Of a DNA stretch of 64,000 nt, positions 22,313 to 48,387 are shown in pieces; the stretch's first letter is position 1, and each line of letters opens with the position of its first letter. The notes beneath the pieces were generated by a model, which did not search any database, was not told the DNA's origin, and saw nothing but the letters and a program-made list of their open reading frames with translations. The stretch spans positions 27,053 to 91,052 of the forward strand of contig CAZYWG010000005.1 of NCBI GenBank assembly GCA_964651815.1, written 5' to 3'. The position numbers were made by a program, and so were the translations under genes. The DNA comes from an uncultured Gammaproteobacteria bacterium (GTDB taxonomy: Bacteria > Patescibacteriota > Microgenomatia > Levybacterales > GWA1-39-11).

Positions 22313-23148
22313 TTTAATAAAGATGAAAACACAATTCCGCTAAAACCCGCCAAATACTCCATGCTTCTCATGATAATAAATGCCACAGCATCAATAGGCC
22401 TCATAACAAAAAGCTTCCAATTTTTAATATATGCTTTTCTTATTGGAAAATAGGAAACCACTCCGGCCTTTGGTCTTTTTGAGATATACTTAATTGAATC
22501 GCGGCCGTACATAAATCTTTTTTTCATTAATTTGAAAAGCTCCAATTTTCCTTCGTTGTGTCCTACTATATTTTTAGTTCTACCAACGTTATATTTTTTT
22601 TCCAAAAGTTTCTGGTGTAGATCCCAATCATCCCCTCCACCACCAAGTGTTTCATCAAGCCCACCCAGTTTTTTCCAAACATCCTTTTTGAAAAATCTTG
22701 GAGCTTCAATAGAATCATCTCCCCAATAACATCTCCTTTCAAGATTTTTTGCAGAGGCCCAAATACCTTCACCAAAAGAGTCTTCCGGAATTATTAAAGC
22801 ATCAAATCTTTTCTCACATAATTCGGTAGCCTCACTTAATAATCCTTTAGAAAGCTCCATGTCAGCGTCAACGTAATAAATGTATTTACCTCTTGCCTTT
22901 TTAGCCCCGTAATTTCTTTTATGAGGTGCATCAAAAGTACCACTAGCCACTTTTGGAACAAACTCATAAATTACAGATTTGTATTTTTTTGCAATTTCAA
23001 GCGTTTTGTCGCTAGAATTACCATCAACAATTATTAGTTCAATCGATAGGTATGTTTGTGACTTAATACTTTTTAAACAATTTTCCAAAAAACGGGATGA
23101 ATTCTTTGTAGGAATAATAACCGATACCAATTCTTTTCTCATAAACAT
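22309..23148 (-). CDS. GT2 family glycosyltransferase.
   Basis: VSVIIPTKNSSRFLENCLKSIKSQTY...IIVDGNSSDKT and a DAD-like YYVDADME motif. Confidence 0.75.
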   Translation of the reverse strand: MFMRKELVSVIIPTKNSSRFLENCLKSIKSQTYLSIELIIVDGNSSDKTLEIAKKYKSVIYEFVPKVASGTFDAPHKRNYGAKKARGKYIYYVDADMELSKGLLSEATELCEKRFDALIIPEDSFGEGIWASAKNLERRCYWGDDSIEAPRFFKKDVWKKLGGLDETLGGGGDDWDLHQKLLEKKYNVGRTKNIVGHNEGKLELFKLMKKRFMYGRDSIKYISKRPKAGVVSYFPIRKAYIKNWKLFVMRPIDAVAFIIMRSMEYLAGFSGIVFSSLLK

Positions 23149-24479
23149 TATTGTTCATTATACTGCATTACAGCCAGAATACTTAGAATTATGTATACAA
23201 AAAACCACGATTTGTTAATTATATTTGAAAAAATGTTTCCTTTTTTTATATTTGAAATCTGTAAAAAAAGAGGCAATACCCAACTAATTATTGCTACTCG
23301 AAATATAAAATAAGAAAACCCAAAGGCAGGCATCCATACATTTTGTAAAAGGCTCGTTCCCACAAAAACTAGAAAGAGGAAAGTTAGAAAATAATTTTTG
23401 TTAAAATATTCTTTCAAAAATAAAGCTATCGAAATTATCAAATATGGATAAAATGGAAATCTGTACCACCCATGCCCTGCTTCATCAGGTATTCCTGCAA
23501 GAAAGATTAAAAAGTAAGAGAGAAATGGAAAAATGATAAAAATGTTTTTCTTAATGTCTTTTATTAATAACAAAAATATGGCAAACCAGCCAAAATAAAT
23601 CCACCCGTCCGTATAAAAACGATCAATAAGGTAGGGCTTCTGGAATAAAGCATAGATACTGTTAAAAGCAAGGTCGTAACGGTTCAGTTGCAAACTCCAC
23701 AAAGAAAGAAAAAGATTTCGGTCAAAATAAAATCCGTAAACAAAATAAATCAAAAATATAGGCAAAACAACAGAAAGGAAAAACAATATATCTCTATATC
23801 GCTTAAGAAACAAAAAAATCAAAACAATTGAAAACGCGCCGGCAAGCCAAGGTACTTTTGAAATACTTAGTAAACCACATAATATAGCTGCAATATTTCT
23901 ATATCGCGTTTTTTTAGTTTTCAAATATTTAGAAATTAAATAAAGCGAAAGAAGCCATATAGGTATGAAAAAATTCTCGTTCTGTAAAATTCTAGAGCCA
24001 ACTGCAATGGACGGAACAACGGCATACAACAACCCAGCAATAAGCGCAATACCTTTATCTTGATATAGTTCATGCGTTAAAAGCATTACAAGCCCTATGC
24101 TAATAACTCCCAGAATCAACGCCAAGCCTCGAATGTGTCTCAGATCAATGTGATATATATCTTTTGCTCCTGACATAAGTGCGAATGTCCCGGCAATCAA
24201 TCCAAAAAAGGGTGGGTGTTCAAGATAAGGCGTAACAAGTCTGAAAGGCGTCTTTTGATATATTATGTTTTTTGTTTTTTTATATTGAGGATGAGGTGAC
24301 CATGATGTTGGGATATGATTCTGAATCAAACTTATGCCCTGCCATGTCCAAGCATACTCGTCAAAAGTCGCTCCAAGCCTTGGCCAAGTGTATAGATTAT
24401 GAATTCTAAGAAAAAATCCCAACAGAAGTATAAGTAAAAAAATAATTAGACAAATTCTATTTTTGATCGATTTAACCAT
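23148..24479 (-). CDS. PMT_2/ArnT-like GT-C glycosyltransferase (GT39/83-like) and a distant paralog of the tandem array at 38345..45102.
   Basis: 443-aa polytopic protein. The first loop has the DE motif (LGATFDEYAWTWQGISL) characteristic of PMT/ArnT-type GT-C enzymes. Confidence 0.55.
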   Translation of the reverse strand: MVKSIKNRICLIIFLLILLLGFFLRIHNLYTWPRLGATFDEYAWTWQGISLIQNHIPTSWSPHPQYKKTKNIIYQKTPFRLVTPYLEHPPFFGLIAGTFALMSGAKDIYHIDLRHIRGLALILGVISIGLVMLLTHELYQDKGIALIAGLLYAVVPSIAVGSRILQNENFFIPIWLLSLYLISKYLKTKKTRYRNIAAILCGLLSISKVPWLAGAFSIVLIFLFLKRYRDILFFLSVVLPIFLIYFVYGFYFDRNLFLSLWSLQLNRYDLAFNSIYALFQKPYLIDRFYTDGWIYFGWFAIFLLLIKDIKKNIFIIFPFLSYFLIFLAGIPDEAGHGWYRFPFYPYLIISIALFLKEYFNKNYFLTFLFLVFVGTSLLQNVWMPAFGFSYFIFRVAIISWVLPLFLQISNIKKGNIFSNIINKSWFFVYIILSILAVMQYNEQ

Positions 24480-33759: not shown

Positions 33760-34754
33760 TTTGAATTCTGAACTTTCAATTCTGAATTCTGGGAGTGCCA
33801 CTTCCATGCGCTTTGAATTATAGTTTCGAGGTCTGAATATTTTGGAATGAAGTTGAGCTCTTTTTTTATTTTTGATGGATCTGCGACCAACTGACCAGGA
33901 TCTCCACTACGTCTCGCTTTTTCTAAAATGTTTATTTTTTTACCACTTACTTTTTCAATTGCCGAGATAACTTGCCTATTTGAATAACTGAGACCCGTAC
34001 CAACATTATAAAAATAGCTCCCTGCAGCTTTACCAAGCATTTCTAAGGCCAGAATATGCGCTTCCACAAGATCAAGAACATGGATGTAGTCCCTAACACA
34101 CGTTCCATCGGGTGTATCGTAATCCGATCCAAACAAATTAAAATTAGAATTCGCTATTACCGCTTTAATAGCTAGCGGGATAATATGGGTCTCAGGAATA
34201 TGATTTTCCCCAAGACTCCCATCAAGCGCACCTCCGCACGCATTAAAATATCTAAGACAAGCAAATGCTATATGTGGGTTTTCCCTTTGTAAGTTTGCGA
34301 GAATTTTTTCTACTTTAAGCTTGCTCTCTCCGTATGGGCTGGTTGGGTTTTTAGGATGATCTTCAGGAATAGGTATTTTTATTGGATTGCCGTAAACTGC
34401 AGCGGTTGATGAAAAAATAAATTTTTCAACTCCTGCGGCAATCGCTGCTTTAAAAAGATTTTCAGAACCTACAACGTTATTTTGTTCATAAAGCTCGGGG
34501 ATCTTTGTTGACTCCTCAACTGAAATATATCCCGCAAAATGTAGGATTGATTCAAACTCATTGTGCTTAAATAAATCTTCGACACTATTCTTGTCTTTAA
34601 TATCAATTTGCTCAAATTTAGCGCTTTTGTCAAGGGCTTCTTTATATCCTCTTTCAAGGCTATCTAAAATAGTGATGTCATCCCCACGTTCAAGAAGCGC
34701 GCGCGCCATAAAACTCCCTATATAACCTGCTCCACCCGTAACTAGAATTTTCAC
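33756..34754 (-). CDS. galE: UDP-glucose 4-epimerase.
   Basis: VKILVTGGAGYIGSFMARALLERGDDITILD and YGESK, with overall GalE-like blocks. The likely true start is the GTG at 34754-34752, preceded by AAAGGAGAAAAGAA (Shine-Dalgarno). The GTGA overlaps the upstream stop. Confidence 0.8.
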   Translation of the reverse strand: MKILVTGGAGYIGSFMARALLERGDDITILDSLERGYKEALDKSAKFEQIDIKDKNSVEDLFKHNEFESILHFAGYISVEESTKIPELYEQNNVVGSENLFKAAIAAGVEKFIFSSTAAVYGNPIKIPIPEDHPKNPTSPYGESKLKVEKILANLQRENPHIAFACLRYFNACGGALDGSLGENHIPETHIIPLAIKAVIANSNFNLFGSDYDTPDGTCVRDYIHVLDLVEAHILALEMLGKAAGSYFYNVGTGLSYSNRQVISAIEKVSGKKINILEKARRSGDPGQLVADPSKIKKELNFIPKYSDLETIIQSAWKWHSQNSELKVQNSK

Positions 34755-35533
34755 TTCTTTTCTCCTTTCAAATATTTTATATAAGAAACAGGAAATCTCA
34801 AGGCAGAAAATAATGAAAATGTAAACCCTTGCCAAGAATCATAAAACCCCTTATGCCTCCCATAAGTTATTACAAACCATTGCGATGGCTTAAAGACCAA
34901 ATAACCCAATCCGTAGATTGTTTTTTTTAGGGAATTTTTGTCTTTCATGTCGTCTTTTATTTGTCCCGCAATTAAATCATTGTATCTGTTCCATTTTGCC
35001 AGATAAAACCCAAAGTTTTTATAAGGGTAATGTAACAAAGCATTTTTTAAATATCCCACTTTTCCTTCGACCTGCGCCTGTTCATGAACGTCATGCTGTG
35101 GAAGTTTTCCTTTTCCTCGTCTATAAAGCCTCAAAGTATAGTCTGGATATTGTCCACCTTTCATAAGAAACCGCCCAAGAAAAAAATTCTTCCTGGGAAT
35201 CCAAAACCCATTGTATTCAGAGCTTTCATTAATTTTTTCCTCAATCTCTTTTGCTAGTTCAGGAGGAACTACTTCATCCGCATCCATTTGCAAAACCCAT
35301 TCACTTTTTGCCATATCTATCGCCATTTGTTTGTTAATGTGAAAGTTTGGTTTATTTGTAGTAATTTTAACTTGGGCCTCGAATTGCATAGCAATTTCAA
35401 CGGTTTTATCTATTGAGGTGCCATCAACAATCACAATCTCGTCCGCAATATCTCTAACGGATTCAAGGCATCTTGCTAAATTTTCTTCTTCATTAAATGT
35501 GGCAAGAACAACTGATAGGATTTGTTTTTTCAT
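34751..35533 (-). CDS. GT2 family glycosyltransferase (paralog group with 52528..53283 and 59332..60267).
   Basis: LSVVLATFNEEENLARCLESVRDIADEIVIVDGTSIDKT, and a C-terminal LHYPYKNFGFYLAKWNRY block shared with the two paralogs. Confidence 0.8.
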   Translation of the reverse strand: MKKQILSVVLATFNEEENLARCLESVRDIADEIVIVDGTSIDKTVEIAMQFEAQVKITTNKPNFHINKQMAIDMAKSEWVLQMDADEVVPPELAKEIEEKINESSEYNGFWIPRKNFFLGRFLMKGGQYPDYTLRLYRRGKGKLPQHDVHEQAQVEGKVGYLKNALLHYPYKNFGFYLAKWNRYNDLIAGQIKDDMKDKNSLKKTIYGLGYLVFKPSQWFVITYGRHKGFYDSWQGFTFSLFSALRFPVSYIKYLKGEKK

Positions 35534-35560: not shown

Positions 35561-36844
35561 TTAGTAAACATCTTTACCCTTTTGACGCATGAAATAATAG
35601 TAAATATACGACTCGGGAACTCCAACTTGGAAGTCTATCTTTTGGTTAAAAGTGGCAGCATTTCTAGGTCTTGATTCTCTTTTATATAAACCTTCATCAG
35701 TATACGGTAAAAAATTTATAAAATTGAAAATACAATAGTATGAAAGTAAAATCGCTATTACTATCTTGGGTACTAAATTTTTGATTGACCAAACCGAATA
35801 AATAAGGTAAGCAATAATTAACAGAGCGATAAAACGGCTATTAGAAAAGTAGTAGTCACTCATTTCGCCAGAATATATTGTAAAAATTACCCATGGAACT
35901 AGAAAATAAAGCAGAATTAAGTACAAAAATTTAAACTTGGCAGGTTCTACAGTTTTTTTGAAGTAAACAATAATGAAGATGATTGGAAAAATTATTTTGA
36001 TTTTCTTGATCCAGTCAAATATTACATACGGGTCAAATTGGACAACCGAATCGCCAATTATTTGGATCATTCGTTTTAAATGAAACCCATGGGAGTAAGT
36101 ATTTAGATATATGATATTTGATCCGGAAGTTTTATTAGATAATGTGTAGGCAATGTTTGGTATAAGCCATATTAGAAAAAGAGGAATAGATATTAAACAA
36201 TATTTGATAGTTTCCAGTCTTCTTGGGAAAAAAGGTAAACAAAAAAAAATTATTATCGGGAAAAAAATTGCAGTAAAGTGAATATTGAACATAAAACCTA
36301 CTGCAATAGCAAGAAACATTATCTTCTTTACATCACCCATCATAACTCTGTAAATCAAGTAAAAAATTATGAGCGATATTGCTGGAATAAAGTCTACAGG
36401 CCACTGTATTCTATCGAAAATTATGGCAGGAAGAGCGAAAGTATTTATCAAAACAGCAATTAACGCTATTTCTTTGTTAAATAGTTTTTTTGAAAAAAAG
36501 TACAAAGTCCAAAAAGTAAATATACTTGTCAAGCCCGCAAATATCTCAGACGCCACAGGATTTAAATTTGTAAGTGCGTAGAATACGGAAATTAAGTAGT
36601 AATAAGCGGGTCCAATATATATTCCGCTATTGGTTTTTGCCACCATTCCTACCAAAGGAAACCTATGATTAACTAAAATGTTTTTCGCTGCCCAGGCATT
36701 ATCAACCTGATCATACCCAAACGGATTTTTTAAATCCATTTGATAAAACCTCAAGAAAAGCTCAAAAGCAAAGATTAAAAGAAGTGTTAGTAAAAACTTA
36801 TTTTTAAGAACCCACTTATTGTACTTCTTGAACTTTTTTCCCAT
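35561..36844 (-). CDS. Polytopic membrane protein; unclassified GT-C-like candidate.
   Basis: 427 aa. The first loop has FGYDQVDNAWAAKNIL, a D-x-x-D-like motif. Multiple TM segments. Confidence 0.5.
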   Translation of the reverse strand: MGKKFKKYNKWVLKNKFLLTLLLIFAFELFLRFYQMDLKNPFGYDQVDNAWAAKNILVNHRFPLVGMVAKTNSGIYIGPAYYYLISVFYALTNLNPVASEIFAGLTSIFTFWTLYFFSKKLFNKEIALIAVLINTFALPAIIFDRIQWPVDFIPAISLIIFYLIYRVMMGDVKKIMFLAIAVGFMFNIHFTAIFFPIIIFFCLPFFPRRLETIKYCLISIPLFLIWLIPNIAYTLSNKTSGSNIIYLNTYSHGFHLKRMIQIIGDSVVQFDPYVIFDWIKKIKIIFPIIFIIVYFKKTVEPAKFKFLYLILLYFLVPWVIFTIYSGEMSDYYFSNSRFIALLIIAYLIYSVWSIKNLVPKIVIAILLSYYCIFNFINFLPYTDEGLYKRESRPRNAATFNQKIDFQVGVPESYIYYYFMRQKGKDVY

Positions 36845-38343
36845 TAGTGGATTCTGGTTTGAACTATTATTCCGCTTGGAAATTTGCGTGTATTTACTAT
36901 TTTTCCGTCATTTGCACGGATTTTCAACCAATCCGTCACGCGCATGGGATATTGATTGTCCGGCTCTATAATAAAATATGCTAGATTTGCTTGTGATACA
37001 GGTTTGTAGTGATATTTGCGCGGACCATACCAATCAAATAAATACTTGTATGTAAAGTCATGCACAGGCGGGGTATAAACAACATATTTAAATTTTTTAT
37101 TTGAAGCCTCTTTGTAAATATAATCGATTACAGCTACTTGATTCCTATATACTGACGCGTCGCCAATAAAAACAGGCCTTGTCAAGCTTGTTACAAATGC
37201 TTCAGGATTAAAATTCAGAAAGAAAAGTATTACCAAAAAAATATATGGGAAAAAATATCTACCTACTTTTTTGGGAGGTATCAAATTCAAACTTATTGAA
37301 ACAATTAGTACATATATTATTGGTAGTCCAACTAAATAGTGCGGCCAAATCTCATGGCTGAAAAATACTGTTCCTATTAAAAAAGTGATGATGATGACCC
37401 CACAAAAGAGGATAATGTTTTTGACCAGCTTTGTGGCTTTTCTATAAAAATATATGATGACGCTTATTGATAATATTAAAAAAATTACACCAAGAAATTT
37501 ATACCCTGCGGAAACTGAAGACGAAAATTGATCGATAAAAATATTTATGCGATTTAATAAAATTTCTACGTAATTTGAGCTATGTGCTTCACCGTGAGAT
37601 AAAAAGTTGATCAACGCTTTAGTCATTAAAAAGTTGTGCCTTAATTCAAAAAAAATCCGAGGAGAGAAAATAATTAACGTTCCAACAATAAATGACATAA
37701 TCGATTTTAGCGGAATGCTTATTTTTTTAATTACCAAAATAGAAATTATAGTGCCGGTCATAAAAAGAGTACCAAATACAATTTCTATATCTATACATAA
37801 CGCCAGTAGGATACCTAAAAAAAGATAATTCCAATTTCTTTCCTTCCTATCCGTTGATACATTTGTTATTATCCAAATAATTAAGAGGACGAAAAAGGGC
37901 GCAATGTTTGGATTCCAAATTTGTGCCGATAAAGAAATCAAAGCTGGCGACACACTTACCAAGGCGGCAAATGATAATCCTAATGATTCTCCATTTATTT
38001 TTTTGCCAACCAGATAAGCCAAAACAATTGAAGCGATTCCAATGCTTGCCATAACAAAGGCTATTCCCTGCGGATTACCCCCAAAAATAACAAAGAACGG
38101 GAAAAGCAGAATATACCACCAAGGACCATAAAATATTCCCGGCAGCCCTGTTGTAGCCCCAATTAATGGTATCTTGTGTGTGAGTAGAATACTCCTTAGT
38201 GCGAGCATGTCACGGCCCACATCATAAGTGAACGCAAAAGAATTAGTAAAAACTCCAAAAAACCTAAGGTAAATACCAATTAGAATAATTCCGTAAAGAA
38301 TTGAAAGATTTCTTTTGAATAAATTCGAGAATTTAAATCCCAT
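36844..38343 (-). CDS. Polytopic membrane protein; unclassified GT-C-like candidate.
   Basis: 499 aa. The N-terminal roughly 380 aa are multi-TM. The C-terminal roughly 110 aa are a hydrophilic domain. Confidence 0.5.
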   Translation of the reverse strand: MGFKFSNLFKRNLSILYGIILIGIYLRFFGVFTNSFAFTYDVGRDMLALRSILLTHKIPLIGATTGLPGIFYGPWWYILLFPFFVIFGGNPQGIAFVMASIGIASIVLAYLVGKKINGESLGLSFAALVSVSPALISLSAQIWNPNIAPFFVLLIIWIITNVSTDRKERNWNYLFLGILLALCIDIEIVFGTLFMTGTIISILVIKKISIPLKSIMSFIVGTLIIFSPRIFFELRHNFLMTKALINFLSHGEAHSSNYVEILLNRINIFIDQFSSSVSAGYKFLGVIFLILSISVIIYFYRKATKLVKNIILFCGVIIITFLIGTVFFSHEIWPHYLVGLPIIYVLIVSISLNLIPPKKVGRYFFPYIFLVILFFLNFNPEAFVTSLTRPVFIGDASVYRNQVAVIDYIYKEASNKKFKYVVYTPPVHDFTYKYLFDWYGPRKYHYKPVSQANLAYFIIEPDNQYPMRVTDWLKIRANDGKIVNTRKFPSGIIVQTRIH

Positions 38344-38344: not shown

Positions 38345-40036
38345 TTAAGTGCCAGCTATCTTTATAGCCGGCTTTCCGTCAAGATTACGAATCTCTTGAA
38401 TTAACCCTACACCTTCCGGTATTTCATCCTTTGTACTTATATATAATACGCCTTTCCTCTGTGAATCTTGACTCCAATCAATAGAACGAAATGTATATTT
38501 TCCAAAAGAATGATGCGAGACAAAGCTTCCAGAACTATTTTCACCAATCTTTTGGTATTCTGCAGGCGGATACTTTAAATAAAACAAGAAAAACATGTAT
38601 GACTTATCCATAGGCTGGTGATCGGAAACAACAATTTCACTATATTTGTTACCTATCTTATTAACAACATCAACTGCTTTCTCATATCCATATTGCCAAT
38701 CTTCAGAACTATAATAATTTTGCTGGACAAAATATTGGTCCAGGTAATAGGAAAAATTGAATATAAAAAGTAATATACAAAAGGCGGAAATTATGTATTT
38801 TACTTTAACAAAAGAGATTTTATATTTGAGATCTAATAACCAAAAAAAGACTGCAACCAACCCTATACCGGAAAGTATTTGATATGTAGGAAGAAAATTT
38901 AATGTTCGCACGGCATGTGGAACACCGGTTGTAATTGAGGCTGGGATTGCTGCTGCCAAAAACCAAAGGAAAACTAATTTCTTACTGTTCTTGTCAAAAT
39001 CTCCAAAAAACAACATGTATATTCCTATCAAAATTAAAGGTAGCTCAAAAAGATAAATCATACCCATACCGGGCGCGTGGTGTCTTGAAATGTCTCCGGT
39101 CATAAATAGCCAATTGAGATCAAAATGGGAAAGGTAGCCTGAAATAATTGTAATTCCATAAATCAACCTCCTGTTATCAAATAAGAGTCCCAGGCGGTCG
39201 CTATTCAATTTGTCTAGATTCAGTCTTTGGCTACTATTTTTCAATACTTCCGTTTGATAAGAAAATATGCTGGTCCCTGATACCCTAAGAAGAGCAGCCC
39301 TATTATTAAGTATGTAAAAAATCATGGGCGAAACAATTATAATTCCAACAACTATTGACGTGATTAAATATTTCCTAGGAATTGAGATTAGCTTTCTAAA
39401 ATAAACGGCGACTAATATCAAAACAAGTAAGGGTGTGAACACTTTTTCACTTTGATAAACATATATACATAAACCCGCAAAAAAAGCAGAAAGAGATAAC
39501 ATCCAGGGTTTCTTTAATCCCTTAACAAAAAAAAGTGCAGTTAGAATATTTAACGCAACTCCCACATTAGACTCAAAAGCAACTCTAGAAAATTGAAGAG
39601 ACCACGGAGAAATTGCAAAAAGAGAACTCGCTGCGAGCGCAAAAAAATCTTTTTTAGGATTATGTTCAAATAATTCTCTTACCAGATAGAACACCGCGAT
39701 AACTGATATAACTCCAAATATTGCTGACGGCAGTCTAACGGCCGCAACATTTAAACCAAACATTAAAACAGTCGGAACAGCAAGATATGCATAAAGTGCA
39801 GGCTTATAATCATCAAATGAGCGGAGTACAACTGGTAAAAATTTCCCGAATTCATCTCGCCCTGTGTGAATTATTGAGTAAGCGTCATAACCGAGAGCTA
39901 CCTCATCCCAATCAGGGGAAGGTGGGACATGACCCAATTGCCACAAACGCAAAATTGTTGCCAAAACAACTATTGCAAACAGCACGATATAAACGGCACT
40001 TCTTATTCTTAATTCATGCTTCATGATTCTAATCAT
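38345..40036 (-). CDS. PMT_2/ArnT-like GT-C glycosyltransferase (GT39/83-like), tandem copy 4 of 4.
   Basis: LWQLGHVPPSPDWDEVALGYDAYSIIHTGRDEFGKFLP. The DE motif in the first periplasmic loop and the overall ArnT/PMT-like topology are present. Confidence 0.7.
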   Translation of the reverse strand: MIRIMKHELRIRSAVYIVLFAIVVLATILRLWQLGHVPPSPDWDEVALGYDAYSIIHTGRDEFGKFLPVVLRSFDDYKPALYAYLAVPTVLMFGLNVAAVRLPSAIFGVISVIAVFYLVRELFEHNPKKDFFALAASSLFAISPWSLQFSRVAFESNVGVALNILTALFFVKGLKKPWMLSLSAFFAGLCIYVYQSEKVFTPLLVLILVAVYFRKLISIPRKYLITSIVVGIIIVSPMIFYILNNRAALLRVSGTSIFSYQTEVLKNSSQRLNLDKLNSDRLGLLFDNRRLIYGITIISGYLSHFDLNWLFMTGDISRHHAPGMGMIYLFELPLILIGIYMLFFGDFDKNSKKLVFLWFLAAAIPASITTGVPHAVRTLNFLPTYQILSGIGLVAVFFWLLDLKYKISFVKVKYIISAFCILLFIFNFSYYLDQYFVQQNYYSSEDWQYGYEKAVDVVNKIGNKYSEIVVSDHQPMDKSYMFFLFYLKYPPAEYQKIGENSSGSFVSHHSFGKYTFRSIDWSQDSQRKGVLYISTKDEIPEGVGLIQEIRNLDGKPAIKIAGT

Positions 40037-41682
40037 ATTGTGTATGCCACTAAAGCAGGTTTGCCATCGAGTGTATTAAAAGTTTTCAAGATTTTAATAT
40101 TTTTGGGTAAGTTAAACGGCGTATTAATATAAAGGACTTTTTTTGAACTTGAAATTTTGTAATTGAAATCATCCGGAAAAAGATATTTTCCAAAACTTTC
40201 TACCGTCACAAATCCAAAAGGGTCTCTTTTTATTTTTGCGCTGTTTATAAAATCTTGAGATAGAGTTTTTGAGTAGAACAAATAATAAATGTAAGGCCGC
40301 CCTAATGAGTTTGTCACTTGAATGTAGTCATATTTATTCTGCACAGACCTTACATACGCAATTGAATCTTTATAACCGTATTGCCATTCTGCGGAGAACT
40401 CTTGCGGATAATGATTGTAGTATTCGTATTCAAAATAAGCAAAGTTTAAAAGACACGCAATCACTACTAGGCCAATTGCGACAAACTTTAAATCTAATCC
40501 ATAAATCCTCTTTTTTATTGGCTCAAGCATATTATACAAACCGTAAGCCGCGAGTATTTGAACTGTTGGAAGAGTAGTTTCTATCCTAAGAGCATGTGGC
40601 GTTTCTCGGGCTGTAGCGGCCGGAATTATTCCAGCGAGGAGCCATATGGGAATAATCCACCACTCTCCCTCTTTTTTCTTAAACAGCAATAAAACTCCCC
40701 CAATAATAAAAATAGATTCCCAGATATACGCCTCTCCCACGCTCTGGATTGAAAACTTAGGGTTTCCGTCTCCTCGTATAAATAAGAATAGGGGACTTAA
40801 ATTATCAAAATAATGCTTAAAATATTCTAATGAATATAAAACTCTTCGGTTGTGAATAATTTTTGACCAAACGGCTCCATGGTCATTGGCAATCTCTTGA
40901 TTTGATATTTTTACAATTGACGGATCGCTAAAAATATTTACTTCTTGAAACCGTGTTTTTGATTGAGGAGTCAACAAAAAGAAAAATAGTGGAATAAATA
41001 ATACTATACCCACGAGCGAAGCCAAAATTACTTCTCTTTTTATTTTCCACAGTTGATTTCTAAACGCAAATGTCAAAATTACAACAATTAAGGGAGCGAA
41101 AACGCGCGAAGTGTTAAACGTATTCATAGAAATGACAAAAGAAATTGCTGATAAAATTAGGTACCATTTATTAGATTGAATTGCTCCTAAAAATAGCCAA
41201 ATCCCGCTCGCCAAAAAAAATGTCGCTACGTTTGCTTCAAAAGCAGCGCGCGAAAGCATTATGTGCCACGGGCTAATAGCCAATATAAACATTGAAATTA
41301 AAGCATAATTTTCTGAATTTTTGGACTTCCAAAAAATTCTTTTGACAAGAAAATATGTAATAAAGACGGTAAGAATCCCAAAAATTGCCGATGGAAACCT
41401 TGTGGCAAATTCATTAACACCAAAAAATTTGACGGGAAGGACATCTAGATAGGCGTAAACGGGTGGTTTATAGTCGCCGAATGACTCAAGATAGACTATT
41501 GGAAGTTTGCCGAACTCGTCGTGTCCTGTTGTCCCAAGTGAGTATGCATTGTAACCCCAAGCAGCTTCATCCCATGTAAGACTTGGCGGATTATTGCCTA
41601 GTTGATAAAGTCTTAAAAAAGTGGCAATAAATACTATGAAGAGAATTAGAATAAGACTTTTATACTTTTTAAGATACAGCAT
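40033..41682 (-). CDS. PMT_2/ArnT-like GT-C glycosyltransferase, tandem copy 3 of 4.
   Basis: LYQLGNNPPSLTWDEAAWGYNAYSLGTTGHDEFGKLP. 4-nt overlap with its neighbours. Confidence 0.7.
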   Translation of the reverse strand: MLYLKKYKSLILILFIVFIATFLRLYQLGNNPPSLTWDEAAWGYNAYSLGTTGHDEFGKLPIVYLESFGDYKPPVYAYLDVLPVKFFGVNEFATRFPSAIFGILTVFITYFLVKRIFWKSKNSENYALISMFILAISPWHIMLSRAAFEANVATFFLASGIWLFLGAIQSNKWYLILSAISFVISMNTFNTSRVFAPLIVVILTFAFRNQLWKIKREVILASLVGIVLFIPLFFFLLTPQSKTRFQEVNIFSDPSIVKISNQEIANDHGAVWSKIIHNRRVLYSLEYFKHYFDNLSPLFLFIRGDGNPKFSIQSVGEAYIWESIFIIGGVLLLFKKKEGEWWIIPIWLLAGIIPAATARETPHALRIETTLPTVQILAAYGLYNMLEPIKKRIYGLDLKFVAIGLVVIACLLNFAYFEYEYYNHYPQEFSAEWQYGYKDSIAYVRSVQNKYDYIQVTNSLGRPYIYYLFYSKTLSQDFINSAKIKRDPFGFVTVESFGKYLFPDDFNYKISSSKKVLYINTPFNLPKNIKILKTFNTLDGKPALVAYTI

Positions 41683-41683
41683 A

Positions 41684-43393
41684 TTATTTCAGCATTAATT
41701 CCAGCATTTTCTGACTATTCTCATATTCTAACAAATCTGTAGAGTTAACTGCCTTAAAAATTGTATTTCCCAATTTATCTTTAACAACAAAAACGGGAGT
41801 TATTATTTTTGGAAAATCTACTGGGTTTGATACTATTAAAACCTTTTGGTTGGACAATTTTTTTAGTTGGCTTGCCGTGGGTGGATTATCGACAAAATAT
41901 ATATTATTAATTCTGTCAATTGATATCCATCCGTCCTCACCTGTTTTGTAATCCACCCCTTCCTTTTTTTGAAAAGATGAAGGATCATATTTTTTGTAAA
42001 AAAGATAATAGATGTATTGCTTTGCATCATTTAAATGCCTTGAAATGTATATACGGTCATAGCCAGTTTCAACAGAATATGTTTTTTGCATCAATTCTCT
42101 ATAACCATATTGGGAGAAAATGGAATAATTGTTCTTAAAATAACTGTTGTAAAGTATGTAAAAAGAAGTAAAGCTGAACAAAATTACTAAAATAAATGCC
42201 AAGCTAAATAATCGTCCAAACTTTTGCTTGTTCAAAACGTCAAATAGGAAAAAAGCTCCAATTCCATTAAGAATAGCAAGATAAGGAATCATAATAGACG
42301 CTCTTGTATAATTTCCATCACTTGTCAAAGAATCAGGTAATGCCGATAGTAAAAATAAAAGAATAAAAATAATATTAAGTTTTCGCTGTTTTTCTTGCCT
42401 TAATAAAAAAACGATTCCTAGAATTAATAACGGAAAACAAAAAAGATAATCTAAACCTCTAAGTGGCAATATTGAAAACTGTGTCGCTGTACCATTTATA
42501 TATAAAAAATTGGGTGAAAAATGGGACAAATAATTCTTGACAAATATACTTATAAAAAGAGCGATTTTATTATCAGCTATTTTACAAATGTTGGGATTTA
42601 CTATTGCAAGACACTGTCCTCTTTCATCGTTAAGAGTATTAATAAGACCAATACTATTGATGTTAGTTGTTATTCCAACTTGTGAAAATCTTACTGAAGC
42701 AGAATTTTTTTGGAAAATTATTGGGGATATAAGAATCAAAAAAAATATTAATACATAAAATAATGGTTTGAATCCTAGTTCTTTCTTATAATTTGCGTAA
42801 AGAATTAAAAACAATGTAATTGGAGCATACAGAATATAAGCGGAGTATGTATACATGCAGGCTGCAAGAAAAAAAGAGGAAATTAGGAGATCCTTTCGGG
42901 ATTTTTGTATAAATCCAAAAAATAACGCCAGAATTAAAAATAAAACAGCAATATTTGATTCATGCCCTATTCTATTTAGCCCAAACGCCCAGGGCATTAT
43001 TGCAAGTAAAACTGCCGAAAGCAAAGCTGCTTTAGAATTGACTAATTTCTTAACTAGAAAAAACAATACAATAACTGATAAAACACCTGCCAGTGCCGAC
43101 ATAAACCTTATAGAAAATTCGCTGAGTCCAAATAGTGCTATAGGGATTATTGAGGTATATCTAAATACAGGAGGTTGAAAATCCCCAAAACCTATAAAAT
43201 TGCTTATTGGCAAGAAATTATTCCATTGATCGTGCCCTGTCTTAAGTAGCGAATATGCATCATACCCAGCGTTCGCTTCATCATTTAAAAAGCCTGCAGG
43301 AATATTCCCCAATTGGTAAAAACGTAGAAATGTAGTGAATGCGAAAACTGCAATTAATATTATTGTTAGTTTGTTTTTAAACAAATTTTTCAT
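41684..43393 (-). CDS. PMT_2/ArnT-like GT-C glycosyltransferase, tandem copy 2 of 4.
   Basis: FYQLGNIPAGFLNDEANAGYDAYSLLKTGHDQWNNFLP. Confidence 0.7.
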   Translation of the reverse strand: MKNLFKNKLTIILIAVFAFTTFLRFYQLGNIPAGFLNDEANAGYDAYSLLKTGHDQWNNFLPISNFIGFGDFQPPVFRYTSIIPIALFGLSEFSIRFMSALAGVLSVIVLFFLVKKLVNSKAALLSAVLLAIMPWAFGLNRIGHESNIAVLFLILALFFGFIQKSRKDLLISSFFLAACMYTYSAYILYAPITLFLILYANYKKELGFKPLFYVLIFFLILISPIIFQKNSASVRFSQVGITTNINSIGLINTLNDERGQCLAIVNPNICKIADNKIALFISIFVKNYLSHFSPNFLYINGTATQFSILPLRGLDYLFCFPLLILGIVFLLRQEKQRKLNIIFILLFLLSALPDSLTSDGNYTRASIMIPYLAILNGIGAFFLFDVLNKQKFGRLFSLAFILVILFSFTSFYILYNSYFKNNYSIFSQYGYRELMQKTYSVETGYDRIYISRHLNDAKQYIYYLFYKKYDPSSFQKKEGVDYKTGEDGWISIDRINNIYFVDNPPTASQLKKLSNQKVLIVSNPVDFPKIITPVFVVKDKLGNTIFKAVNSTDLLEYENSQKMLELMLK

Positions 43394-45102
43394 TTTGTAA
43401 TTGACATAACCTTAAATGCCGCAGTGTTATCGCTTCTCTTAATAATCGCTATTTTTTCGACTCCTTCACTCGGCGTCTCACATTGCCCATCATCTACATA
43501 TAAAATTCCTTTTTCTCCAACTAATTTTGTTACTAAAATACCCGTTTTTTTATCAGTATCTTGGTACGCCCTGAGTGGACACCCATCTTTTGATATATGA
43601 TACTTATCAAATGAAACGCTTCCATAATCCTGGCCTATTGTATTCTTTTTAAGAATATTTTGAACAATTTTTGGATCATAACTGTTGTAGAAAAAAATAA
43701 ACATTGAAGGACTTCCGTATGAATCTGAAATTACTACCTTTTTATATTTAAGTGTGTATTTGTTTAGAGTTGACACCAATTCGCGGTATCCTTCTTCGCG
43801 AAACCAAGGCCTATGAACAACCTGCTGGACGTAGTAAGAATAAAGATAGAAAGATAAACTATATGCAATTACAACAGCAACACAAAACATTGCAAATCTG
43901 AATACCCACTTATTTTTAAAACTTGTAAAAAAATTATAAATTTCACACAAACCAAGCGCCGAAATAATTGATAGAGCGGGAAAAATAATAAGAGTTCGTT
44001 GGAGATTTGGCACATCGTCAAAAGTCAGAGCACTTCCCACAGGTGCGAGAGCCACCCAACCAAGAATTAATACTCCCAACTTTTTGTCATTTCTAAATAA
44101 GCTCCAAATACCCAAAAATAAAAGGGGAATATCAAAAAAATACAAAATTCCCATATCAGGAACTCTATATCTTGCCGGCAATCCTTGATCAGTAAAGAGA
44201 AAAGAATATGAAAAATGTTGAAAATAATTTTGTGCAAATGTTGTTGAATAATTGAGAATTTTATTATGAAAAACCCGGGCAATCTGTGGCGGAACATTCA
44301 TCACCCCATCTTCTCTAAGTTCTTCATTTAATACCAGCTGTGTTTGAGGATTCTGAAATATAGATAATGTCCTTAGCCTGAAGGAGAGAGTTGGCGAAAG
44401 AATTATTAATGCAACAGGAATAATTATTAAAAGAATGTATAAAGCAATGGGGCTAAAAAATTTTTTGACTCCGCTTTTTTTATTCGCAAATAAAGTCACA
44501 ACTAACAATATCGGAATAAAAAGTGGCAGAAAACTTCTGGGTGCTTGGTACGTCAAAAGGGTTATTAAAAGAGAAAGATAACTTAGAATAAGAAGATAAA
44601 ATTTATTCTTCTCATTCCATAATAAAAATAACCAGATTCCAAGAGATATAAAAAATACAACTATAACATTCTCCGTTGAGACACGCGATAAGTTAATATT
44701 CCACGGAGAAATTGCGATAAAAAATGCTGCAAATATTGCAATAGTTTCTGAGTTTTTAAACTTTGAAAAAAGTTTATTAGTAAGTAAAAAGGTTGTCAGA
44801 ATAGTTAAGCTTCCAAACAACGCTGCAGCAAACCTTACAGAAAATTCATTCAAACCAAAAAGAATTATAAAAGGAATTGAAAAATACGAATAACCCGCCG
44901 GACTATAAAGAAAAGACTTAAAGTGAATGGGTAGAAAACCGCCGGTAATCTCACTCCCAGTTTTGAGTATCGAATAAGCGTTATACCCGAGGTATGCTTC
45001 GTCTGTGTGAAAGCCTAATGGGATTAAACCAAGTTTGTAAAACCGGAGAGCTGTACCAAGTAAAAAAATGATCAATAAAAAAACATATACTTTTTTCGTC
45101 AT
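43390..45102 (-). CDS. PMT_2/ArnT-like GT-C glycosyltransferase, tandem copy 1 of 4.
   Basis: FYKLGLIPLGFHTDEAYLGYNAYSILKTGSEITGGFLP. Confidence 0.7.
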   Translation of the reverse strand: MTKKVYVFLLIIFLLGTALRFYKLGLIPLGFHTDEAYLGYNAYSILKTGSEITGGFLPIHFKSFLYSPAGYSYFSIPFIILFGLNEFSVRFAAALFGSLTILTTFLLTNKLFSKFKNSETIAIFAAFFIAISPWNINLSRVSTENVIVVFFISLGIWLFLLWNEKNKFYLLILSYLSLLITLLTYQAPRSFLPLFIPILLVVTLFANKKSGVKKFFSPIALYILLIIIPVALIILSPTLSFRLRTLSIFQNPQTQLVLNEELREDGVMNVPPQIARVFHNKILNYSTTFAQNYFQHFSYSFLFTDQGLPARYRVPDMGILYFFDIPLLFLGIWSLFRNDKKLGVLILGWVALAPVGSALTFDDVPNLQRTLIIFPALSIISALGLCEIYNFFTSFKNKWVFRFAMFCVAVVIAYSLSFYLYSYYVQQVVHRPWFREEGYRELVSTLNKYTLKYKKVVISDSYGSPSMFIFFYNSYDPKIVQNILKKNTIGQDYGSVSFDKYHISKDGCPLRAYQDTDKKTGILVTKLVGEKGILYVDDGQCETPSEGVEKIAIIKRSDNTAAFKVMSITK

Positions 45103-46748
45103 ACAAGCACATTGTTAATCTTCTTTTTGAAAACCCACATCAGAATTAAAACAATTATAGAAAACAAGCTTATATAATCTGCAAATTGCCTCGAGCGAGT
45201 TTCTTGAAATTTAATCTCGGCCTTATGCTTTCCGTTCGGAACATTAAAAGTTATTAATCCCCTATGGTTCATATCCTGAAATTGAATAAGTGTTTCCTGT
45301 TTATCTACATAAACTTTCCATCCTGGAAAGTAAACTGTATTGTCAACTATAGTCATCTTTGTTTTTGCTAATAGAGTAAGAACATGCAAGTTGCTTTTCT
45401 TCTTTTCGCTTTCTATTTCACCTTTTCCGGAAATTATTTCATATTGGTTATTGGCCCTCTTCCAAAAATCACCAGCAGTCCATATAGAACTCGTTCTCAA
45501 ATGATAATCCGTAGTCCCTTGATAAGAATTGTAAAAATTATCCGTATGATTTACATACCCTTGGACTTTTATAAATGGGGCGGAAAAAATGATAAACAAA
45601 ACCATAGCTAAAAGTAGTAGGGTTTTACTTTTAATGTAATTCATTATGTAAAAAATTACTATGCAAGCACTAAAACCTGAAAGCGCGGTAAACCGCCAAG
45701 GATAACCCATTTGCCTCACTACTGGAAGATGCTCCCATAAAATTTTTGAGTATTCCGTAGTCATAAAAGCTGCCCCTAAAAAAATTATTAGCCAAAAAAC
45801 TATTTCCTTCCTATACTTCTTAATTCTTGATAAAAATAAAATTGTAAGCAGTGGTAAAACAAGATATAAAATACCTATCTGCGGTGAAAGCCCGTTTTTT
45901 AAATTGATATCCGGACCAAATCCCCACGGAGAATAAAGTAAGTGAAAAATAGGTACAAAATTTGTCTTATATAAAGTGTCGACCATAAGTTTTTCGTAGA
46001 CAAACTTCCCTTCCAGAATTGCAGGTAACCAGAAAAAACATGACACACCTAACCCGACTAAAAAAATGAACAAAGAACGAATAAATCCATATAGGCTTTT
46101 GGCAAAAACAATAGAATAAAGAAAAAATACAGGTGAAAATATGGCTGCCATCCCATTATGGGATAATACAAAGAAGCCGTAAGCAAAACTTCCTAAAATT
46201 ATAGCTGTGATACGTTTCTCTTTTTGGGCATTATCAATTGACAAAAAAATCAATGGGATAAAAATAAAACTCAACATTTCAGCAACGTCCCCTCTCACAA
46301 ATGTATCAAGGAGCCTATAAGGCAGAACTAAATATATTATTGATGTTGCGAAGGCAATTTCTTTCTTTGAATTTTTTGAAAGCCAATGGAAAAGTAAAAT
46401 GGGACCAAGCAAGAAACTCGCTGACATAATTAACTTATACGTGTTTTCGTATGATATTCCTCCAAAATGAATAAAGCTCGCAAGATAACCTGGTAGTGGA
46501 TAAAAGAAAATAAAAAGAGGAGAACCATATCCATAGTTTAAGTTGCCTGCCCACCTTGGGATCATTTGACCGTCTAAAAAAGCTTTAAAATACGCGGCGA
46601 ATCTTGCTACGTGAGCTTCACCATCCTGCGACATGTAAAAATTTGAATGCAAAATAGGAAACAAAAGAAGCAAGCCTATCAAAAAAATAAGAAGACTATA
46701 AAAATTTTCAACAATTAATTTACGAACCTGTATTTTAAAAGTTTCCAT
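45099..46748 (-). CDS. Family B polytopic membrane protein (YfhO-superfamily-like GT-C candidate), paralog B2.
   Basis: SQDGEAHVARF...MIPRWAGNLNYGYGSPLFIFFYPLPGYL at the N-terminus. YFPGWKVYVDKQETLIQFQDMNHRGLITFNVPNGKHKAEIKF near the C-terminus, followed by a TM anchor. Confidence 0.65.
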   Translation of the reverse strand: METFKIQVRKLIVENFYSLLIFLIGLLLLFPILHSNFYMSQDGEAHVARFAAYFKAFLDGQMIPRWAGNLNYGYGSPLFIFFYPLPGYLASFIHFGGISYENTYKLIMSASFLLGPILLFHWLSKNSKKEIAFATSIIYLVLPYRLLDTFVRGDVAEMLSFIFIPLIFLSIDNAQKEKRITAIILGSFAYGFFVLSHNGMAAIFSPVFFLYSIVFAKSLYGFIRSLFIFLVGLGVSCFFWLPAILEGKFVYEKLMVDTLYKTNFVPIFHLLYSPWGFGPDINLKNGLSPQIGILYLVLPLLTILFLSRIKKYRKEIVFWLIIFLGAAFMTTEYSKILWEHLPVVRQMGYPWRFTALSGFSACIVIFYIMNYIKSKTLLLLAMVLFIIFSAPFIKVQGYVNHTDNFYNSYQGTTDYHLRTSSIWTAGDFWKRANNQYEIISGKGEIESEKKKSNLHVLTLLAKTKMTIVDNTVYFPGWKVYVDKQETLIQFQDMNHRGLITFNVPNGKHKAEIKFQETRSRQFADYISLFSIIVLILMWVFKKKINNVLV

Positions 46749-47452
46749 AAGGCAACTGCACCATCGGTAACGGTATTTAGTTTTTTTCCTTCTTCGTATC
46801 CACGAGGTGTTGTTTTTATCGGAATTTCTTTAATTTTTAAACCTTTTTTTAAAAGCTTGGCAGTAATCTCAGGTTCAAAGTCAAAACGTTTAGAGGAAAG
46901 ATTCATATTTAGCACGGCTTTTCTAGGGAAAAGCTTATAACACGTTTCCATATCTGTGATCCACTGTCCGTACAATACACTTGTGATAAGACTTAAAAAT
47001 CTATTACCAATATAATGAATTAAAAACTGTGGTCTTCTTTCTTCATTTTTAAAGTGAGGAAGCCTATTTAGCCGGGTTCCATAAACAACGTCATTTTTTT
47101 CTTTAATATAGGAAAATAATATGGGGATGTCTGTTGGGTCGTATTCTAAATCGGCATCTTGAATAATAATATAGTCTCCCGTTGCATCATTTATTCCCGT
47201 GCGGACTGCTGCTCCCTTTCCCAAGTTTTCCCCATGCTTTATAAACTTAAAATTACTTGTTTTCGAATTATTTGAGTTTTTGTTAAAAAAACCGGTCTCT
47301 GTAATTTGCTCTACAGTAGAATCACTTGAACCATCATCAACCACAATTACTTCAACCGTAACATTTTTGATTATTACCTTTTTTACACGGTGTAAAACTT
47401 TGGAAATGGTTTTCTCTTCGTTAAAAACCGGAATAATTATTGATAACTTCAT
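46715..47452 (-). CDS. GT2, a DPM1/CsbB/GtrB-like polyprenyl-phosphate sugar synthase.
   Basis: 245 aa with LSIIIPVFNEEKTISKVL...VIVVDDGSSDST, ENLGKGAAVRTGINDATGDYIIIQDADLEYDP and a C-terminal TM-less tail, as in DPM1-like enzymes. Confidence 0.75.
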   Translation of the reverse strand: MKLSIIIPVFNEEKTISKVLHRVKKVIIKNVTVEVIVVDDGSSDSTVEQITETGFFNKNSNNSKTSNFKFIKHGENLGKGAAVRTGINDATGDYIIIQDADLEYDPTDIPILFSYIKEKNDVVYGTRLNRLPHFKNEERRPQFLIHYIGNRFLSLITSVLYGQWITDMETCYKLFPRKAVLNMNLSSKRFDFEPEITAKLLKKGLKIKEIPIKTTPRGYEEGKKLNTVTDGAVALWKLLKYRFVN

Positions 47453-48387
47453 TTATGTAATAACTCGGAATCCTTTTTTCTATATTGTTTTTTTTGTTTT
47501 TTCCTTTTCTGAATTATAGCAGGAATTCTTACAACCGCATAGAAAAATCCAATAAAGAAAGCAGTATCAAAATTAATAATCGCGTGAGCAAAATGATATG
47601 GAAGCCAAAGTGTGTGCGAAATTATTAAATTAGAGTCTGTTATATTCTTCCAAATAAATGTGAATTGATTTCTATAAGCAATTTTTTTAATTTGATTATT
47701 TTTGTAATGTTTTTTAATTGCTCCTTTATCGTGATGGTGCTCAACTACACTTTTTGGTTCAAATAGAATGTTATATCCGGATTTTTGTGCTCTGTAGGAA
47801 AGATCTATGTCTTCCCAATAAAAAGGGTTGTATAACGGGTCAAACCCTCCAATTTCCTCAAATATCTTCCGGCGAATAAGGCTGCTTCCACCGGAAATCC
47901 AAAATGTATCTTTTTTGTCAACTTCTCCCCTAGAATGAACTAGAAAGCCCCGCGACCAGCGAGCAACTCCCCTTCCACGTAAAATTACTTTTTCTTCTTC
48001 AATGCTCTTATCCATTAATCCAACTCCAAAAAGTTCTTCATTTTTAACAAAATGTTTTATTGCATCATCTAAGAAATTTTCTTCTACGACAATATCAGTG
48101 TTCAAAAGAAAAACCAAATCGCTATTACAAGCACTCACGCCGTTGTTAACATTTGATGAAAACCCTAAATTCTTTTTGTTCCTTAACAACCTTAATTTTA
48201 TAGGGTGGGTTTTTTTTATTTTTTCAACAAAAATATTAAGAGCATTGAAATCCTCTTCTTTTGAAAAGTCATCTGTTATAACAATTTGGCCAACATTATA
48301 TTTTGAGATATATTTGATTAAAATCGGGAGATTTTTTTCTATCAAATTAAAACCGTTATAATTAGGAATTACTACATCTATTTTCAT
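47449..48387 (-). CDS. GT2 family glycosyltransferase.
   Basis: IDVVIPNYNGFNLIEKNLPIL; DxD region LLNTDIVVEE; C-terminal FYWEDIDLSYR (GT2 'ED' motif). Confidence 0.75.
   Translation of the reverse strand: MKIDVVIPNYNGFNLIEKNLPILIKYISKYNVGQIVITDDFSKEEDFNALNIFVEKIKKTHPIKLRLLRNKKNLGFSSNVNNGVSACNSDLVFLLNTDIVVEENFLDDAIKHFVKNEELFGVGLMDKSIEEEKVILRGRGVARWSRGFLVHSRGEVDKKDTFWISGGSSLIRRKIFEEIGGFDPLYNPFYWEDIDLSYRAQKSGYNILFEPKSVVEHHHDKGAIKKHYKNNQIKKIAYRNQFTFIWKNITDSNLIISHTLWLPYHFAHAIINFDTAFFIGFFYAVVRIPAIIQKRKKQKKQYRKKDSELLHK

Follow-up and report, generated by a model that had tools for sequence, protein, structure and literature searches.

A constant core pair and two variable slots in an array of GT-C glycosyltransferase genes from a Levybacteria glycan island

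In a 64-kb stretch of DNA from a Levybacteria (Patescibacteria) genome, hereafter the window, four consecutive minus-strand genes encode PMT/ArnT-like glycosyltransferases of the GT-C type, designated paralogs A (38345..40036, 563 amino acids (aa)), B (40033..41682, 549 aa), C (41684..43393, 569 aa) and D (43390..45102, 570 aa). Their coordinates and lengths of 549–570 aa, first given in an earlier note on this DNA, agreed with the open reading frame (ORF) listing. The earlier note also described the four genes as a tandem quadruplication. Comparison with 80 related loci contradicted a single quadruplication fixed as a unit, as only the pair B-A was constant and the occurrence of C and D was patchy. 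The array is instead a conserved core pair together with accessory paralogs in a variable slot, which makes "tandem quadruplication" the wrong description. B (upstream) and A (downstream) form the constant core across Levybacteria and Gottesmanbacteria, and C, D and the neighboring genes E, F and G are accessory modules in two slots flanking it. We propose, with somewhat better than even confidence, that A–D depend on lipid-phosphate sugars and decorate a wall or surface glycopolymer outside the membrane, with one site or linkage for each paralog.

The 80 loci (one genome per species) came almost entirely from metagenome-assembled genomes (MAGs) of Levybacteria/Levyibacteriota or Gottesmanbacteria. 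The ORFs called in them were compared with the window proteins by blastp, using an ortholog cut-off of ≥40% identity, and 227 A–D-like proteins were clustered by distance. Orthologs of A were present in all 80 loci (45–67% identity) and orthologs of B in 76, followed by the GT2-family genes gt2c (60), gt2a (48) and gt2b (42), and then by F and G (23 each), D (10), C (9) and E (5). B stood directly upstream of A in 78 of 78 informative loci, the denominator being 78 rather than 80 because two loci (L021 and L066) begin at A on a contig edge. The modal B-A junction was a 4-nt overlap (26/73). Four further loci picked via B orthologs all carried an A ortholog directly downstream, with 63–68% identity. 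The full order D-C-B-A recurred only in two loci (L003 and L006) besides the window. In the clustering, A and B formed large clades of 81 and 73 members, with within-clade distances of 0.42–0.44 and an A-B distance of 0.67. C and D formed small, deep clades (8 and 10 members) at distances of 0.74–0.77 to everything else, and about 20 further paralog clades were found beyond A–D.

The backbone order of the loci was gt2_52, gt4_50, yfhO48, gt2b, gt2a, slot 1, B, A, slot 2, gt2c and an epimerase gene, and in the window this conserved backbone spans 33756-53283. Its GT2 genes gt2b (47449..48387, 312 aa), gt2a (46715..47452, 245 aa) and gt2c (34751..35533, 260 aa) are all on the minus strand, with gt2c directly following A or slot 2. 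In minimal loci both slots were empty. Slot 1 held 0–3 variable GT-C genes (E, D, C or members of other clades). The 0–5 genes of slot 2 were F, G, F-like genes, members of the A-like clade x1 or a PTPS_related gene. Other GT-C paralog clades, about 20 in all, often occupied these two slots. In total, 33 distinct architectures of the A–D family were found among the 80 loci. In the window, slot 1 contains C, D and gene E (45099..46748, minus strand, 549 aa), a PTPS_related-type membrane protein of the GT-C clan (PF10131, E 1.8e-13). Slot 2, downstream of A, contains the PMT_2-type genes F (36844..38343, minus strand, 499 aa; PF13231, E 7.9e-7) and G (35561..36844, minus strand, 427 aa; PF13231, E 3.8e-8). 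Seven GT-C genes thus follow one another without interruption in the order E-D-C-B-A-F-G, with A–D at the center.

Orthologs of C and D were scattered across the whole divergence range of the loci, and the identity of accessory orthologs followed that of A (rho 0.70 for C and 0.90 for F, compared with 0.76 for B). Given this pattern, ancient paralogy of C and D with differential retention fits the comparative data better than recent acquisition. Recent horizontal insertion of C and D was also considered and found to be unsupported, since their identity follows that of A and their guanine-plus-cytosine content is only slightly different.

Two side observations concern these loci. A gene for an S-adenosylmethionine-dependent methyltransferase of about 197 aa lies between gt2a and slot 1 in the close relatives L083-L086 (about 3700-6000 of each), as a truncated ORF of 100 aa in L086, and the window has no methyltransferase gene at this position. 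In addition, many public MAG records with this Levybacteria-type locus bear the title 'uncultured Gammaproteobacteria' or name Limnocylindrales, Acidiferrales, Saccharimonadales or Pacearchaeota (L002, L006, L008, L015, L019, L021, L052 and others); the titles are probably placeholders or taxonomically wrong, or the contigs were mis-binned.

Within the array, a 4-nt overlap had been claimed for every junction. This was correct for A/B and C/D, and also for D/E (all ATGA), and incorrect for B/C, where a 1-nt spacer separates the stop and start codons (TAA-T-ATG; 41682/41684); A/F likewise has a 1-nt spacer. All-against-all blastp of the A–D proteins gave 30.5–34.4% identity over about 500–590 columns (E 1e-47 to 1e-90, 162–277 bits). 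Since 100 shuffled versions of these proteins reached a top score of only 25 bits against A–D, the similarity does not derive from hydrophobic composition. The copies are diverged and not recent, as had been proposed, with 30–34% mutual identity and a separate orthologous clade for each copy, and recent duplication or gene conversion was ruled out on the same grounds. The family is large: a four-paralog profile matched 5,556 clusters (50% identity) at E ≤ 1e-30. The exact B sequence is found in both NCBI and Logan, and orthologs from Patescibacteria/Levybacteria MAGs are labeled 'glycosyltransferase family 39 protein' by NCBI and 'Ara4N transferase-like' by JGI. The genes are thus already annotated publicly as GT39/ArnT-like.

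Gene H (23148..24479, minus strand, 443 aa), which had been named as a fifth distant member, is truly a PMT_2 protein (PF13231, E 5e-12) with a looser DE motif, LGATFDEYAWTWQG. It is not the sole extra member, as F, G and E belong to the wider group too. By hhalign, H matched the A–D profile over its N-terminal ~170 aa (probability 81%, E 1.2e-5), and by blastp F showed weak similarity to A–D (E 1e-4 to 1e-5). No significant similarity between E and A–D was found by hhalign (probability 2.9%). E was consequently dropped as a candidate fifth close paralog, and is a GT-C protein only at the clan level through the Pfam PTPS_related family.

The constancy of B-A raises the question of whether the two proteins act together. 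One explanation is that B and A are subunits of an obligate heterodimeric GT-C enzyme, comparable to yeast Pmt1-Pmt2 and mycobacterial EmbA-EmbB, with C and D being further units that form homo- or heterodimers instead of independent duplicates. This would be compatible with either a glycopolymer or a protein acceptor. The order and adjacency of B-A in all 78 informative loci and all four B-selected loci agree with it, as does the tight junction, whose modal 4-nt overlap suggests translational coupling. In addition, the clades of A and B are sisters (distance 0.67, vs 0.74–0.75 to C and D) and diverge in a correlated way (rho 0.76), and dimeric GT-C precedents are found among the structural matches of B (EmbA-EmbB 7bvf and the Pmt4 homodimer 9i5k). 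However, conserved adjacency would equally suit two enzymes that act one after the other on a single substrate, a shared phylogeny by itself leads one to expect correlated divergence, and no B-A fusion protein was found among the top 150 family representatives, which were all about 510–600 aa. Taken together, we consider an obligate heterodimer possible but doubtful.

Assignment to the GT-C glycosyltransferases was obtained from both family profiles and structure. All four proteins scored above the gathering threshold (26.1 bits) of Pfam PMT_2 (PF13231), with 44.3 bits for A (E 2.9e-11), 58.2 for B, 65.3 for C and 33.1 for D; F, G and H were also above this threshold. An AlphaFold2 model of B, built with 64 sequences, had a predicted local distance difference test score (pLDDT) of 86.7 and a predicted template modeling score (pTM) of 0.88. 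In this model, a helical membrane module with about 11 TM (transmembrane) helices plus the helices of the first extracytoplasmic loop (EL1) extends to about residue 428, after which comes an alpha/beta domain at the C terminus. The other three paralogs can be aligned to B along their full length. A Foldseek search with the model against the PDB returned only GT-C proteins at E ≤ 0.02 (ArnT, STT3, Pmt4, ALG9, EmbA/B/C and AftD). The modeled fold of B is GT-C, of the GT-C_A class. The PMT/ArnT-like GT-C identity proposed earlier was thus confirmed by PMT_2 in all four proteins and by the GT-C-only matches of the B model, whose predicted structure resembles ArnT, STT3, Pmt4 and Emb.

The top Foldseek match of B was ArnT of Cupriavidus metallidurans (GT83; 5ezm/5f15; E 5e-7, TM-score 0.5, 12–13% identity). 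When the 64-sequence family profile was searched against the PDB, ArnT was the sole chain matched by sequence (E 1.2e-4), over the region of the KPP motif and TM2-TM7. ArnT shares with A–D the GT-C_A fold and a C-terminal extracytoplasmic domain, and a polyprenyl-phosphate monosaccharide donor would be expected for both. Beyond the low identity, A–D differ from ArnT in several ways: they have a DE motif where ArnT has its own type of Asp pattern, they appear to have about 11 TM helices and ArnT 13, their C-terminal domain is without a PDB match, and their host is without lipopolysaccharide (LPS) context.

These matches, together with the JGI label, bear on whether A–D could be ArnT-type enzymes that modify lipid A or the LPS core, like ArnT or RgtA-D. 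The best score with the NCBIfam ArnT equivalog (NF009784) was 19.4 bits (D), against a cut-off of 567, and at the Lys of the ArnT-aligned KPP motif C has Q and D has S. Moreover, no lipid A or LPS genes were found in the 64-kb island and, judging by candidate phyla radiation (CPR) genomes, Patescibacteria are not known to synthesize lipid A. We therefore regard an ArnT-type role as scarcely credible. The Rgt proteins of Rhizobium do resemble the array in another respect, with several PMT_2/ArnT-like paralogs (RgtA/RgtB/RgtC/RgtD) transferring the same sugar, galacturonic acid (GalA), to different positions of one glycoconjugate. Their donor is polyprenyl-phosphate-GalA. They differ from A–D in having an acceptor in the LPS core or lipid A of a diderm bacterium. 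RgtA and RgtB act on the outer Kdo (3-deoxy-D-manno-oct-2-ulosonic acid) residue (PMC4402001).

The C-terminal extracytoplasmic alpha/beta domain of B (40036..40395, minus strand; residues 430–549, ~120 aa) has equivalents in A, C and D. The domain can be aligned across the four paralogs, where GY, Y and FY positions are conserved, as are the motifs WQYGY and YxxLFY. Modeled alone, the domain had a pLDDT of 91.6, and Foldseek of the isolated domain against the PDB gave no match, the best E of 0.13 being noise.

The first extracytoplasmic loop contains the motif that had drawn attention to the array. Using the regular expression [YW][QK]LG..P.....DE[AV]..GY[DN]AYS in a six-frame scan, we found exactly four occurrences in the window, all on the minus strand and one in each gene: WQLGHVPPSPDWDEVALGYDAYS in A (39875..39943), which holds the catalytic-type D44-E45, YQLGNNPPSLTWDEAAWGYNAYS in B (41539..41607), YQLGNIPAGFLNDEANAGYDAYS in C (43250..43318) and YKLGLIPLGFHTDEAYLGYNAYS in D (44971..45039). 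The shared motif is therefore real, and its earlier wording needed one correction, as the residue after DE is Val instead of Ala in A. EL1 is the most conserved region of the proteins, with a mean identity of 49% and 19 of 66 columns invariant, compared with 25–33% for the TM regions and 27% for the C-terminal domain. This, with the shuffle scores, rules out hydrophobic low complexity as the source of the motif, because the polar first loop and not the TM helices is the most conserved part. Residue numbers are those of A unless stated (R366 of B is R377 of A). D44-E45 is invariant in A–D and 98–100% conserved across all 10 larger paralog clades, and in the model the DE of B (its residues 38–39) lies at the beginning of helix 37–52, the first extracytoplasmic helix. 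Given that EL1 is the most conserved region and D44-E45 is retained in every one of these clades, the motif is a conserved catalytic-type loop.

Further residues are conserved to the same degree. R30, P38, D44, E45, R101, R151, E155, R251, G338, R377 and G392 are 98–100% conserved in clades A, B and C and in most others. The exceptions are E155, with 70% in clade D and 94% overall, and R251 in three small clades, with Lys instead in x2 and a variable or absent residue in x3 and x5. R151-x3-E155, whose R151 is 100% conserved, was placed in the loop between TM3 and TM4, and R377 (99–100%) before TM10. In the M. tuberculosis PMT, three elements have been shown by mutagenesis to be essential (PMC12331936): the DE in loop 1, another acidic residue in loop 2 (Rx4-6D type) and the Arg of the Rx2Y motif in loop 5. 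By comparison with that study, D44-E45, R151-x3-E155 and R377 would correspond to the EL1, EL2 and EL5 elements of this enzyme. Judged by this conservation in clades A–C and most others (E155 being the exception in D), all four copies look catalytically intact and active.

Protein O-glycosylation stays in play as a serious rival, on account of the DE motif and the PF02366 match of B. Under this explanation, A–D would be true PMT-type protein O-glycosyl(mannosyl)transferases that use polyprenyl-phosphate-mannose to modify Ser/Thr residues of pilins, S-layer or secreted proteins, with each paralog specialized by protein substrate, as in fungal Pmt1/2/4 or human TMTC1-4. PMTs of the GT39 family (M. 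tuberculosis PMT, yeast Pmt1-Pmt2 and Pmt4) share with A–D the DE directly before the first extracytoplasmic helix and, as it appears, the Arg/acidic pair of EL2 and the Arg of EL5. They also offer a precedent for paralog families with different substrates and for heterodimers (Pmt1-Pmt2). In the PMT family PF02366 (cut-off 22.7 bits), B passed with 55.0 bits. Pmt4 structures were among the Foldseek matches of B, the ~11 TM helices inferred from the B model equal those of PMTs, and the name given to the orthologs by NCBI refers to GT39. On the other hand, D stayed below the PF02366 cut-off with 19.4 bits and A and C had no match to it. None of A–G attained an NCBIfam equivalog, the Pmt, ArnT and Agl23 models all staying far under their cut-offs; the top score with the Pmt model NF058602 was 21.2 bits (C), against a cut-off of 800. 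The PDB sequence profile found ArnT and no PMT, and ArnT was also the best structural match. The Rx2Y motif is incomplete, as R377 is conserved but no aromatic residue is present at its +3 position. A–D also lack a MIR domain and lie in a context of polysaccharide assembly. We consider true PMT activity unlikely, though clearly worth weighing.

Distinct acceptor or sugar specificities had been suggested for the four copies. Nearly no clade-specific fixed differences were found in loop 1; they clustered in EL4 (residues 290–313 of B), beside R366 of B (its residues 355 and 368) and in the C-terminal domain. This is the pattern that separate specificities would produce, which makes distinct acceptor or sugar specificities plausible for each paralog. 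That the copies are instead redundant or decaying duplicates without distinct roles is very unlikely in our estimation. C and D are indeed dispensable in most related genomes, as redundancy would predict. Nevertheless, all four are intact full-length ORFs, each copy belongs to a clade with orthologs at 40–71% identity in other genomes, and the catalytic-type residues are retained in nearly every clade, with the reservation about E155 in D. Mutual identity of only about 30% combined with retained orthologs points to long-term purifying selection on each copy.

Gene context bears on the likely donor and acceptor. Nearly all genes of the window are on the minus strand and concern glycan metabolism, so that the window is one glycan island. 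It contains at least 14 GT-C-type genes with Pfam support, comprising seven PMT_2 genes (A, B, C, D, F, G and H), four PTPS_related genes (at 28645, 45099, 56723 and 62409), two YfhO genes (at 48384 and 53256) and one MptA_B-family gene (32104-33216, minus strand). Other genes of the island encode 11 GT2 and five GT4 glycosyltransferases, at least six epimerases/dehydratases, a nucleotidyltransferase, deoxythymidine diphosphate (dTDP)-sugar enzymes, and methyl-, acetyl- and carbamoyl-transferases. The GT2 protein of gt2a (PF00535, E 4e-33), encoded directly upstream of the GT-C slot, had near full-length best NCBIfam matches to AglJ, PgfS, ArnC, PpgS and a Dol-P-hexose transferase, with 55–98 bits vs cut-offs of 325–529. 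In each of the 48 loci with gt2a, the gene lies immediately upstream of B or of slot 1. We designated gt2a a candidate polyprenyl-phosphate-sugar synthase, that is, a candidate source of the lipid-linked donor. Two more gt2a-like GT2 genes (61709-62428 and 25608-26366) and two genes for Wzx-like Polysacc_synt proteins (26350-27609 and 60264-61706) are present in the island.

Based on this context, we propose the following scheme for the decoration of a glycopolymer by A–D. First, a GT2 enzyme of the cytoplasm whose gene belongs to the operon-like block of A–D (gt2a, perhaps others) would load a sugar onto polyprenyl phosphate, and the lipid-linked sugar would then be flipped outward, with the Wzx-like proteins of the island as candidate flippases. 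Each GT-C protein would move the sugar onto an acceptor at the cell surface, outside the membrane. The acceptor would most likely be a wall or surface glycopolymer made by the surrounding 64-kb island, and each paralog would use a different site or linkage. B-A would be the constant core of this system, and C, D, E, F and G in the two slots would diversify the surface glycan between lineages. A glycopolymer is favored as the acceptor because the gene context is of the polysaccharide type.

Several points weigh against this scheme. The matches of gt2a are all far under the family cut-offs, and no GtrA-type flippase was found among the window ORFs. The pathway of the acceptor polymer is incomplete, as no initiating phosphoglycosyltransferase, Wzy polymerase or ligase was recognized in the window. 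The DE motif and the PF02366 match of B point equally to protein O-glycosylation. Furthermore, the loci were ranked by similarity to A, which restricts the sample to Microgenomates-type genomes.

The proposed logic of a GT2 polyprenyl-phosphate-sugar synthase, a GtrA/Wzx-type flippase and a GT-C enzyme decorating a wall polymer follows the model of multi-component transmembrane glycosylation, among whose known GT-C members are GtlB, GacL and GtsC of the PMT_2 family (PMC8035078; PMC11127046). A–D are likened to these proteins by Pfam family and description, and as in such systems YfhO-type genes stand beside GT2 genes in the window. However, multi-component systems usually have one GT-C per decoration, whereas the window has seven in a row, at least 14 in 64 kb, and no GtrA homolog was found in it. 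A second parallel is provided by the mycobacterial embCAB, Aft and MptA-B sets, which, like the array, consist of tandem and anciently diverged GT-C paralogs; those of the mycobacterial sets lie in one operon and each has its own acceptor or linkage. In these sets the glycan is built outside the membrane from polyprenyl-phosphate sugars, and EmbA-EmbB is a heterodimer. Emb and AftD were among the Foldseek matches of B, and the MptA_B-family gene lies in the island. The Emb proteins differ from A–D in their family (GT53/Arabinose_trans vs PMT_2), in their size of ~1,050 aa with CBM domains, and in belonging to an unrelated phylum.

Tandem diverged GT-C paralogs with separate specificities are thus a well-documented theme (embCAB, Aft, Pmt1/2/4, TMTC1-4, Rgt and Gtr), and the array is a useful, unsurprising example of surface-sugar diversification that brings no new enzymatic principle. 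What is new is descriptive: the layout of a core pair plus variable slots, the dense packing of GT-C genes in so small a genome, and the family-specific C-terminal domain without a solved relative. A literature search on GT39, GT-C or glycosyltransferases of CPR/Patescibacteria/Microgenomates found no paper on these genes, and a preprint on Saccharibacteria pili only predicted pilin glycosylation. Patescibacteria, with genomes of about 1 Mb, depend on cell contact, and their surface chemistry is almost uncharted. In one such genome, at least 64 kb is given to glycan genes, with at least 14 putative lipid-sugar-dependent membrane transferases, and a constant core of gt2b-gt2a-B-A-gt2c-epimerase can be separated from two hypervariable GT-C slots. 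This offers concrete targets, namely B-A, which may be an essential enzyme of the envelope, C and D, which may act as serotype-like modifiers, and the new C-terminal domain. A bolder idea, which we hold to be rather improbable, is that B-A is an obligate heterodimeric GT-C, a universal and probably essential envelope builder of Microgenomates-type Patescibacteria and the bacterial equivalent of Pmt1-Pmt2 or EmbA-EmbB, with the flanking slots as a plug-in site and the C-terminal domain as an acceptor-recognition module. If so, the slots would gain and lose alternative GT-C paralogs (C–G and the ~20 clades) and thereby vary the surface glycan, for example under pressure from phages or host recognition.

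With respect to operon structure, promoter and terminator predictions in 34-53.5 kb were uninformative, as their counts did not exceed those in shuffled sequence. Rfam gave no match on the whole window and the tRNA scan found none. The sole sizeable non-coding gap of the island (51753-52527, 776 bp) has no Rfam match or tRNA. On the plus strand it contains two small ORFs, one of 77 aa with two hydrophobic helices (51890-52123) and one of 80 aa (52284-52526), and the gap may mark an operon boundary or a region of divergent promoters. Next to this gap, a YfhO-type GT-C gene (53256-55592, minus strand) directly precedes a GT2 gene for a protein of 251 aa (52528-53283, minus strand), an arrangement resembling the CsbB/YfhO pair for lipoteichoic-acid glycosylation in Firmicutes.

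Downstream of the epimerase gene, a gene for a DUF5667 protein (33229-33807, minus strand, 192 aa) adjoins the MptA_B-family gene. The two are paired at this position in about one quarter to one third of the loci (each in 20–29 of 80), and a chain regulator or an acceptor is a possible role for the pair. Five large minus-strand ORFs have no significant Pfam match: 10612-13995 (1127 aa), 30269-32104 (611 aa), 2899-4551 (550 aa), 2-2041 (679 aa) and 55570-56739 (389 aa). Faint matches were seen to DUF5667 in the 1127-aa protein and to the GT-C protein AftD in the 679-aa protein (E 0.059). These ORFs could encode additional divergent GT-Cs, or else surface proteins that themselves become glycosylated.

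Finally, the island encodes a NodU/CmcH-type carbamoyltransferase (4555-6357, minus strand; Carbam_trans_N E 1e-39, Carbam_trans_C E 1e-60), which suggests carbamoylated sugars in the surface glycan. An ORF of 149 aa (15918-16367, minus strand) matches both dTDP-4-dehydrorhamnose 3,5-epimerase (E 2.6e-13) and Polysacc_synt_C (E 2.6e-7) and overlaps an RmlD-like gene; this is an odd combination for a short protein, and its start or gene boundaries may be miscalled.

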